From positions 1 through 16,900 of the IMG/VR virus record IMGVR_UViG_2724679238_000014: 16,900 bases of DNA; one strand, given 5' to 3'. Source of the stretch: a virus. Its lineage: Duplodnaviria; Heunggongvirae; Uroviricota; Caudoviricetes. Made by a program: the position numbers. Below, piece after piece: positions 8,201 to 11,200 of the stretch. Position 1 is the first letter of the stretch. Each line of letters opens with the position of its first letter.

Positions 8201-11200
8201 CCTCCCAGACGCTTAAACATTTTCCCGGACTGAAAAGCCACCAGCGGATAACTCAGGGTATGAGTACGCCCCTGAATCTGGCAGACAACCTTCTGGCTTT
8301 CTGTATTGACCAAGCAAACCCGCAGAACGTGGCCGTTGCTGGTGGTGAACCACTGCCCCACACGGGGGCAACGGTTGTATCGGTGATACAGGGAATTAAC
8401 GACGCGGCGAATCATGGGCGCACCTCCCATTGATTACGGTGGAAAGCGGTGTGACTGAGGCTGATTTCTGCCTCATGGAATGCTTCAATGCAGCTCTCGT
8501 AGTACCGCATTGTGCGCAGACTTAACCCAAGCTGAAGCATCATCAGGACATCAAGGGTGATGTAATAACCACGCAGGGAGTCACCATAGATGTGATAAGT
8601 ACCCGGTATGAAATTGCGGGTAAAAAATTCGCGCGAGCAGTTCAGATACTCGATTTTGTCGACGATGTTCTGGTGCATGCGCTTGAAATGGCAGGCAACA
8701 TGCAGGGAGAAAATAACGGCCTTGCCGTTGACGACTTCGATTTTCAGGTATGGGGAAGTTGGGACTGTAGCCATGATGGCAGCCTCCGATAACAGTGAAT
8801 TACCTTCACCACCGGAAACGCCAATTTCGCTGGTGGTGAACTGAACGGGGTTGGCGTAACCGGCGTTATCGGAAACCGGCGCACCTTTCGGTGCCCCCGT
8901 CCAGCCCACCATAATTTGGGTGTGCGCAGACGCAGACGATAAAAAAGACGCTGGCGCGTCATATATCGCCGATAACATTTCCAGGACGCCAATCCCGGCA
9001 CCCGCTTTATAAGGTGCTTGGACAGTGTACCGTCCCGAAATTGCAGAATCAATATTTAGGCTTGAAACATTCATATGCTTACTGGTATTTTTGTTAACGT
9101 TCTTGGATTCTTGGGCCTGCTTTATGCAGTTGCCTGTATCAACGTTGAGCGAGCCGGGTCACTACCCGGCTTTTTTTCACCGCTGCCAGCCAATAACCTG
9201 AAATAACCCCATTTTCGGGTGATACCAGCGAGTCCCTCGCGGTTCTGCTTCCTCCATAACCCGATAAAAAGCAGCCATAAACGGTTCCACGGCAACAATT
9301 GCGCGACGTGATAACAATCCGTCCGGCGTCATAAACTCGTGGGTATCTGTAGGAATTTGATAAGCGTTCACCAGATTGCGGCATTTATCATCTGACAAAC
9401 CGGTTTTTGCTTTCAGTTGGCGATATCCGGCATAGCCCTCACGAATAGTGCCCTTTTTGATTTGCTCGACTGTTTCAGCAACGTGGCTGACTTTTTCTTC
9501 CACCTGAGTGATCCGTTTCTGCTGGCGAACAGCTTCAAGAGCCATTGCAGCAACCATTTCGATTTCGCTCATTGGCTTACGGATCTGTTCTTCCAGTTCG
9601 CGCCAGCGATCTACCAGGCGGGCTGTGAATTCGGGGCAAAGCTGAGCGACAACAATGATGCTGTCGCGTTTGCCTCGTTCACCTTCGAAAAGATAATGCT
9701 TACTTTTTTGAGTTAAACCTAACCCATTGATATTTTCAGAAATCCCCATTGGGGGAAGCTGAATAATCCTTCTTTCAGCAAGGCGCTCAATGGATTGTTT
9801 AACTTTGTCATGGCGGCTGCCCACCAGCTCTGCGATTTCAACACTGGTCATGGATGCTTTGCCGTTAAAAATTGCGGTGTTCACTGCCATCTCCTTACGG
9901 ATAAATTCTTTTAAAATTCCGCACATTCGTACTTGTTGGTGCCGAACCTTCCTTTAGTTATCCTTTTGATCCCTATAAACAAAAGAACCAAAGGAGGTTC
10001 GACATGTCACAAAAAAACGATATTCCTGTTTTTCCTATTACAGCCTGGCAGGCTGGACCATTGCCCGGTTATGGTGCGCTAGCATTAAAATTCCAGTACC
10101 TGGCTTCCCCTATGCAACCACTGGATTCAGCACAAGAAACTCAGTTCTTCGCGCTTACTCCCGAAATGGCTGAGACTTTGATCTCCGATCTGCGCCGACA
10201 TATTGAGACGCTGAAAAAATCCGGTATTCACAGCCCACAAGAAAACAGGCATTAATCGAAAACACGGTTGCCACATAATTTCTTGAAAAGCGTCGCGCAC
10301 TGGCGCTTTTCATTTCTCTACGATCAACAAGCATGCACTTCACTTCACCTCCCCCGTGCGCGCTAGACTTGGATTTGAAATTTTGCGTAACGAATCAGGA
10401 ATTCCATCTTCAGGGTGAGGATAAAGATCTGGCCTTAAGCCATGTGGCGTGACTTTCCATGCAACTACTTCACATACGCGTAAAACAAAACGAGCAGGAA
10501 TTGTGTTTTTTGAAAACCACTGATTCACCGCTTGCGGCGTCACACCAAGATTTCGCGCTATGGCATTTTGCGCAATTAATGTACGAAGTTTGTCGTAATC
10601 ATTTCCTTTCATAACAAAGCACCAACATTAACTTTATGAATCAAGAATACATCAAGTTTAAATTAACATGCAAGTTGCAAAAGGATCGAATACACTAAAA
10701 TCAAGTAAAGATTTATCCTTGTAAAGAAACCCACAGGATTTGGTCATGAAGAACGTCAAAAACACGGAAAATCGAATAGCCGCGATGCTGAAAGCAAAAG
10801 GATGGACTCAGGCTCAACTTGCCCGCAAGTTAGGCGTGAGTGCGCAATCAGTGCAGTACTGGACAACAGGAAAAACATTTCCACGGAGTGATAAGCTCGC
10901 GCATTTATCAGAGATTAGCGGTTATCCACAATCCTGGTTCTTAGGTGAAGACTCCTCACCAACCTTTTCCTCGCAAGAGAAACACCAGACAAGAACAGAT
11001 AGCGTCGTGTTTAATGTCCTTGATGTTGAGTTTAGTTGCGGTGATGGAACTCATGTCCGTGGTGACTTGATAGATGTAGTGCGCTCAATAGAACTTGATC
11101 CTGAATATGCCCGACGTCTTGTTGGAAATCGGGCATTCAAAAATATAGAAATAGGTAACGCCAGAGGAGACAGTATGGCTCCCACAATCTCACCTGGCGA

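Follow-up and report, generated by a model that had tools for sequence, protein, structure and literature searches.

A BssS-family gene lies antisense to the early-right operon in an exchangeable slot of a Shiga-toxin prophage of Escherichia coli

Why should a temperate phage keep a small gene that faces its own early-right transcription? This question is raised by an open reading frame (ORF) of 83 codons in the IMG/VR virus record IMGVR_UViG_2724679238_000014, of which positions 1 to 16,900 were analysed (this whole stretch of 16,900 nucleotides (nt) is called the window below). The ORF lies on the plus strand between cro and rha. The initial annotation of the stretch took it for a strongly translated gene of no recognisable family, ended by a hairpin usable in both directions and probably expressed in lysogens as a moron. 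Its description of an 83-amino-acid (aa) ORF with a consensus Shine-Dalgarno (SD) sequence, placed antisense between the minus-strand genes cro and rha, is confirmed in its coordinates, SD sequence and flanking genes alike. The unit is composed of the following elements.

9991-9998, plus strand: perfect SD sequence AAGGAGGT, ending 5 nt before the ATG, as read from the sequence
10004-10255, plus strand: BssS-family ORF, ATG start, 83 codons encoding 83 aa
10284-10312, plus strand: intrinsic terminator of the ORF, with a stem of 12 base pairs (-17.4 kcal/mol, z = -2.6) followed by UUUCUCU

This ORF is a real conserved gene under strong purifying selection. In 7 loci from seven genera or phages, the frame is uninterrupted and has a constant length of 83 codons. 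Comparison of these homologous loci gives ratios of non-synonymous to synonymous substitution rates (dN/dS) of 0.08-0.18 where dS is unsaturated, and variable sites at codon positions 1/2/3 number 42/32/76, an excess at the third position. The SD sequence AAGGAGGT occurs once in the window, versus 0.37 occurrences expected by chance. A minus-strand ORF (10155-10343, 62 aa), called by some pipelines in the homologous loci, was rejected as an antisense artefact: stop codons break it in Tatumella, it lacks a conserved start, and the variation by codon position follows the plus-strand frame.

The protein does belong to a recognisable family, contrary to what had been stated. It matches the Pfam family BssS (PF13991) with 57.7 bits (E=1.3e-15, cut-off 27), residues 10-79 covering profile positions 1-70 of 72, and phrog_10846 over its full length. 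The identical E. coli protein is already named 'bssS family protein' by NCBI (RefSeq WP_001422786.1) and is found on at least 302 contigs. Among 5.8 billion proteins searched, 17 full-length homologues of 83 aa were retrieved, with 63-96% identity, most of them bearing the same label; they come from E. coli, Salmonella, Klebsiella, Atlantibacter, Kluyvera and Tatumella. The locus itself is present at 95% identity or more in 13 of 5426 complete E. coli genomes. Clustered at 50% identity, the whole of PF13991 falls into about 140 groups, whose members are nearly all free-standing proteins of 75-90 aa.

Family membership does not make the protein the chromosomal BssS. Profile comparison by hhalign aligns the ORF group with canonical BssS end to end (probability 97.5%, E = 6.9e-12, 77 aligned columns). 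BLASTP against BssS of E. coli K-12 gives no match, and the score against the NCBIfam BssS equivalog model NF008958 is 25 bits, below its cut-off of 125. The protein is thus a PF13991 member but a paralogue, not an orthologue, of chromosomal BssS/YceP. Like BssS/YceP of K-12 (b1060), it consists of a single domain (83 versus 84 aa), and in a multiple alignment both show GW close to the N-terminus and [KR]H at the C-terminus. In contrast, the two share only about 22% identity, and the ORF sits in a prophage immunity region instead of the chromosomal solA-bssS-dinI locus. The chromosomal homologue is a conserved core gene of Enterobacterales. It has been linked to colonisation resistance, to biofilm, and to indole and autoinducer-2 (AI-2) signalling (PMC3646849, citing Domka 2006). 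In the literature searched, no paper was found that ties the BssS family to phages or describes BssS as a moron family; the 'BssS' mentions in a paper on AcrIIA22 refer to the enzyme Nb.BssSI, not to this protein family. In K-12, bssS directly adjoins the SOS gene dinI (positions 3702-4488 of the K-12 locus L010). Homologues of dinI are frequent in lambdoid prophages, and the vicinity of bssS and dinI may indicate that the chromosomal locus derives from a prophage.

Of the homology and structure searches proposed by the initial annotation, the former thus led to PF13991 and the latter gave no significant match. An AlphaFold2 model built from a 17-sequence alignment is moderately confident, with a predicted local distance difference test (pLDDT) score of 78.5; in it, a 20-residue helix comes after three beta strands. 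Foldseek retrieved nothing significant with it from the PDB, nor from a viral structure library. A sequence search of the PDB returned a designed-repeat match alone, which is spurious, so that no solved structure is related by sequence. For the COMM domain (COMMD1-10 and the bacterial COMMD-like 9q6a), the best Foldseek value was E = 0.17, with no sequence similarity, and a paper on the prokaryotic origins of COMMD proteins does not mention BssS. The likeness of the predicted fold to COMM would be one of topology only. Such a topology suggests a small dimerising module, not a DNA-binding or enzymatic role; no DNA-binding, enzymatic or membrane domain is predicted in this soluble 83-aa protein.

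The signals around the ORF are those of a self-contained unit, at least on its 3' side. The stem AAGCGCC/GGCGCTT and its TTTTCATT tail (TTTTC(A/T)TT) follow the ORF in 7/7 loci with differing loops, and the Tatumella stem carries a compensatory GCACC/GGTGC change. Read on the minus strand, the hairpin has four U's within its stem as its sole U's and AGAAAUUAUG as its tail, and folds no better than shuffled sequence (z = -0.19). The A-run 5' of the stem, which would provide U's on the minus strand, measures 2-4 nt in the seven loci. As only the plus-strand U-tract has been kept, one-way termination is the conserved property. The supposed use in both directions therefore does not hold. On the plus strand the hairpin is a good terminator of the ORF; without a minus-strand U-tract and with its poor fold there, it would be at best a leaky obstacle to pR transcription.

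Two further elements are found on the 5' side, within and just past the spacer that separates the ORF from rha.

9936-9964, plus strand: weak candidate sigma-70 promoter TTGGTG-17-TATCCT, found by eye
9939-10005, both strands: imperfect inverted repeat, whose 5' arm CCGAACCUUCCUUU can potentially pair with the SD sequence and the start codon

The inverted repeat folds on both RNA strands, with -22 kcal/mol (z = -3.6) on the plus strand and -30.9 kcal/mol (z = -5.2) on the minus strand, i.e. in the pR transcript, where the A.C/C.A mismatches of the plus strand become G.U pairs. Its arms are conserved in the Salmonella locus L018 while its loop differs; it could be an operator, an RNase III site or a means of sequestering the SD sequence. 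The candidate promoter has an equivalent in the same Salmonella locus (TTGGTG-17-GATATT). A start site placed after TTGGTG-17-TATCCT would fall within the hairpin loop, which would leave the SD sequence unpaired; in read-through transcripts coming from further upstream, the SD sequence would be sequestered. TATAAA (9974-9979) was also considered as a -10 element and rejected, having no -35 partner and no conservation in L018. Inspection by eye revealed no LexA box or nut site near the gene. Elsewhere, an element GTTGTGTGCCTGTCTTTTCACCACATCAGGCTCGGTGG recurs 60-100 nt upstream of the bssS-family ATG in five loci covering both of the positions described below: L012 (about 4890-4930), L014, L011, L002 and L016. 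In Tatumella it shows an apparent compensatory change from CCAC/GTGG to ACAC/GTGT. This element is absent from the window, has no Rfam match, and is not obviously a promoter or a terminator.

The cro-rha interval itself behaves as a site of cargo exchange. The 80 nt that end with the ATG occur, at about 97% identity, in 87 complete E. coli genomes, 13 of which have the bssS-family ORF. In the 74/87 others, an unrelated ORF of 97 aa (WP_000867914.1, phrog_4753) follows the shared ATG. In the example of E. coli TUM9812 (locus L001, 4885-5178), the sequence diverges immediately past this ATG, and in the prophages with the 97-aa ORF homology to the window returns no earlier than the end of cro. 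A third cargo is seen in phage phiP27, where a plus-strand ORF of 223 aa, L13, lies between the cro-like and rha-like genes (11200-11871 of locus L020). At least three unrelated plus-strand cargo ORFs thus occupy this slot in phiP27-like prophages, and no empty slot was seen among the related prophages examined. About 100 nt of this upstream sequence also occur in a Salmonella prophage whose backbone differs (it has a P22-type Cro and a KilA-N/ANT gene) and where a bssS-family ORF again follows, so that this region accompanies plus-strand ORFs in two different phage backbones. The slot is an exchange site in which a 5' platform (spacer, SD sequence, ATG) and an ORF-plus-terminator block recombine independently.

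Beyond these close relatives, the position of the gene is kept in distant phages. The same antisense place directly after cro is found in prophages of E. coli, Klebsiella and Salmonella. It is also found in three Pseudomonas prophages, whose proteins are just about 29% identical, and in Pseudomonas phage PseuP_224; in Ssp-JY37 (deposited as a Synechococcus phage), the gene follows cro together with one further gene on each strand. A second position, between cI and the early-left genes, is seen in Atlantibacter, Tatumella, Acerihabitans and Salmonella phage F1055. In the Atlantibacter locus L012, a pL-like TTGACA-18-TACATT promoter with the pR operator GTAAGATATCCTAC separates cI from the bssS-family gene and is directed through the latter; matching operator repeats are found on the same side of cI in the Tatumella locus L014. 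Transcription from the early-left promoter pL must cross the gene antisense there as well. Every phage or prophage copy examined lies in the immunity region, faces an early operon and is convergent with cro or cI. The rule of orientation is thus that the gene is the first thing met by an early promoter, either pR-cro or pL. Scanning species-representative genomes with the profile yielded no confirmed locus, and with a degenerate DNA pattern Acerihabitans only. Just upstream of the bssS-family gene of the Pseudomonas prophage L021 (4832-4918, plus strand), TTGCCT-17-CATAAT is followed about 30 nt further on by a hairpin with a T7 run. This site could, from its layout, produce an RNA of about 50 nt antisense to the 5' end of the Rha/ANT gene, similar to P22 sar.

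What, then, would such a gene do? The explanation that we favour, with a probability of roughly 0.55, is that this small cytoplasmic BssS-family protein comes from a self-contained, lysogen-expressed and host-directed accessory cassette, which occupies the first slot downstream of cro. In a lysogen, CI would shut pR, and a modest promoter of its own within the 119-nt spacer would drive the cassette, TTGGTG-17-TATCCT being the candidate. The perfect SD sequence would stay free, giving efficient translation, and the transcript would stop at the cassette terminator. Upon induction, head-on transcription from pR and the resulting antisense RNA would silence the gene. By homology with BssS, the protein would modulate signalling in the host or its biofilm-related physiology through protein contacts, and not as a DNA-binding protein. 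The promoter, the lysogenic expression, the interference by pR and the host phenotype are what we infer from this arrangement.

Several features of known morons are indeed found here, namely replacement between the same flanking genes in related phages and an own terminator (the 10284-10312 hairpin with its plus-strand U-tract). Placement antisense to lytic genes with an own promoter has been described as a hallmark of lysogen-expressed accessory loci (PMC7067206). Like STMMW_20121 of ST64B and bstA of BTP1 (PMC7067206), the present locus is a small gene opposite to the surrounding lytic operon, with its own terminator and a cargo that varies among related prophages. Unlike these two loci, its promoter is only a candidate and its base composition is not atypical; unlike morons usually, its position is conserved across very distant phages. 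The oop unit of phage lambda, which is a 77-nt non-coding RNA antisense to cII, is another point of comparison. Here also the unit opposes pR shortly after cro, and it could interfere with the pR transcript or pair with it in antisense; in contrast to oop, it encodes a conserved protein under purifying selection and overlaps no coding gene on the other strand. The moron proposed initially therefore stands as a genuine antisense gene with a strong SD sequence, its own terminator and an exchangeable slot. It is weakened in part by the assignment to a known family, since the proposal was to be given up if the protein fell into a known moron family.

A number of observations weigh against the accessory cassette. 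A consensus scan found no promoter in the 119-nt rha-ORF spacer (9885-10003), the hexamers of TTGGTG-17-TATCCT match at just 3/6 and 4/6 positions, and no transcript data for the gene were found in the literature. The guanine-plus-cytosine content of the ORF (46.4%) is no different from that of the window (45.6%), so that the atypical composition expected of a moron is lacking and there is no compositional sign of foreign cargo. The position is kept more tightly from Enterobacterales to Pseudomonas than would be the case for random cargo, which hints at a phage-directed role. Transfer of the BssS phenotype to the protein is weak as well, given the 25 versus 125 bits on the equivalog model and the negative BLASTP search. 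To our knowledge, BssS itself has no established molecular mechanism.

The tight position is what a contribution to the phage switch could account for. The unit, head-on to pR or pL, would then shield rha, c4/isrK-ant and O/P in lysogens when early transcription leaks, by means of antisense RNA and transcriptional interference, while its protein would act on a phage or host regulator of induction. Such a role fits a place kept at just about 29% protein identity, after cro or after pL, always with convergence towards cro or cI. It also fits the genes lying downstream in the window, which are of the Rha/Ant type and then a C4/isrK antirepressor-control module, and the structured inverted repeat over the SD sequence, which folds better on the strand of the pR transcript. 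However, unrelated ORFs replace the gene in the same slot of sister prophages with the same upstream region, so that this specific protein is dispensable for the switch. An insulator role alone would leave the strong purifying selection on the protein unexplained, the hairpin is unconvincing as a minus-strand terminator, and a profile search detected no DNA-binding domain in the protein. We regard this possibility as rather doubtful, though it comes next after the accessory cassette.

Less probable still is a superinfection-exclusion or anti-phage defence gene protecting the lysogen, comparable to rex, sieB and bstA, which lie beside repressor genes; defence genes are common in such prophage slots. 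The vicinity of bstA and its repressor gene is documented (PMC7067206). The immunity-region slot, the antisense orientation and the exchangeable cargo would all suit a defence function, as would the further cargo genes that adjoin the bssS-family gene in some loci. It is made improbable by the PADLOC search, in which 0 families matched at E <= 0.1, by the nature of the product, a single soluble protein of 83 aa without predicted enzymatic or membrane domain, and by the chromosomal homologue BssS, an Enterobacterales core gene with signalling and biofilm phenotypes (PMC3646849). That the ORF arose by chance or is decaying, its SD sequence being fortuitous, could have been suggested by the small size and the failure to find a consensus promoter; this is already refuted by the full-length family match over the Pfam threshold, the constant 83 aa across genera and a dN/dS of about 0.1-0.2, and there are 140 clusters (50% identity) of relatives of about 80 aa.

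Profile searches identify the genetic setting of the accessory cassette, which remains the preferred explanation, as the half of a lambdoid Shiga-toxin prophage of E. coli that contains the early and regulatory genes. Its backbone is akin to phiP27 and to the Stx2e/Stx2g prophages of E. coli. The features of the window are, in order, as follows.

387-920, minus strand: lysozyme
2121-2195 and 2199-2274, minus strand: tRNA-Gly(TCC) and tRNA-Thr(TGT), downstream of stxB
2788-3057, minus strand: stxB
3064-4023, minus strand: stxA
4471-4839, minus strand: antiterminator Q
5093-6484, minus strand: DnaB-type helicase
6481-7368, minus strand: DnaC-like loader
7370-8194, minus strand: HTH_36 replication initiator
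8412-9074, minus strand: 'ash family' ORF, 220 aa
9177-9884, minus strand: rha, a Rha/Ant-like regulator (PF09669, 32.5 bits), next early-right gene
10340-10612, minus strand: cro-like gene with a YdaS/Cro-type helix-turn-helix (PF15943, 47.7 bits)
10644-10673, minus strand: candidate pR TTGCAT-18-TATTCT, read from the sequence amid ACTTGAT operator half-sites
10740-11435, plus strand: CI-type repressor, helix-turn-helix plus S24 peptidase (Peptidase_S24 62.4 bits, HTH_3 33.3 bits)
11447-11463: terminator 3' of cI
11499-11527: pL-like promoter
Beyond pL, plus strand: early-left genes, rightward, with the integrase last (14598-15797)

The product of rha also matches phrog_63, 'anti-repressor Ant', with 163 bits, and its GTG start at 9884 agrees with the RefSeq annotation of homologues. 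The cro-like gene is divergent from cI and convergent with the BssS-family ORF; its product scores 22.9 bits against the P22_Cro model, under the model cut-off of 30.2. The candidate pR is not called by the consensus promoter scan. The inverted repeats and ACTTGAT half-sites of its region recur at the pL region (11534-11572), beyond cI. The stx2 operon (2788-4023, minus strand) shares 99.3% identity with its counterpart in phage phi467, but only 74-77% with stx2a/stx2e. In phiP27, tRNA-Ile and tRNA-Arg genes lie upstream of stx, in contrast to the tRNA-Gly and tRNA-Thr genes downstream of stxB in the window.

Small RNAs (sRNAs) are also predicted downstream of rha. A C4 antisense RNA (8829-8916, minus strand; RF01695, 82.8 bits) and an isrK Hfq-binding RNA (8941-9017, minus strand; RF01394, 63.7 bits) are both recognised at the Rfam gathering level. 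Both matches fall within the 220-aa 'ash family' ORF, in its N-terminal half; its C-terminal half carries a Rha domain. The 8412-9074 region looks like an sRNA-controlled antirepressor module of the P1 immI / Gifsy-1 isrK type in the early-right operon, and the 'ash' annotation may partly represent translated sRNA genes. In the gap between ash and rha (9062-9179, plus strand), a promoter-like TTGAAA-18-TATTTT with an upstream TG is followed by a strong terminator (9151-9172) plus T7. The product of about 85 nt, a small-RNA candidate, would form two hairpins (-31.1 kcal/mol, z = -3.8) and be antisense to the pR transcript. An Rfam scan of 9000-10800 at E <= 1 gave no match, including for this candidate.

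The immediate surprise is small, because the gene is already annotated, its family is known and the arrangement is a well-known one in prophages: the databases already identify the gene, and accessory genes placed antisense are a familiar kind of prophage locus. Two aspects may be new, modestly so, namely the antisense placement conserved from enterobacterial to Pseudomonas prophages and the common 5' platform with its exchange of ORFs precisely at the ATG. A broader suggestion, which we hold only tentatively and consider unlikely, is that the BssS family is at its root a temperate-phage function of the immunity region, its gene being retained head-on to an early promoter, close after cro or pL, in lambdoid prophages from Enterobacterales to Pseudomonas and acting in lysogeny control or lysogen physiology, and that the dinI-adjacent 'biofilm regulator' BssS is a domesticated copy. 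If this were true, the 5' platform with its inverted repeat, SD sequence and ATG would be a dedicated module for expression or exchange. BssS is widely quoted as a biofilm regulator. A diverged paralogue carried by a Shiga-toxin prophage, as by many other temperate phages, offers a tractable route to the role of this family and, given its slot beside the genetic switch, lets one ask whether it influences the behaviour of the lysogen or the induction of the Stx phage.

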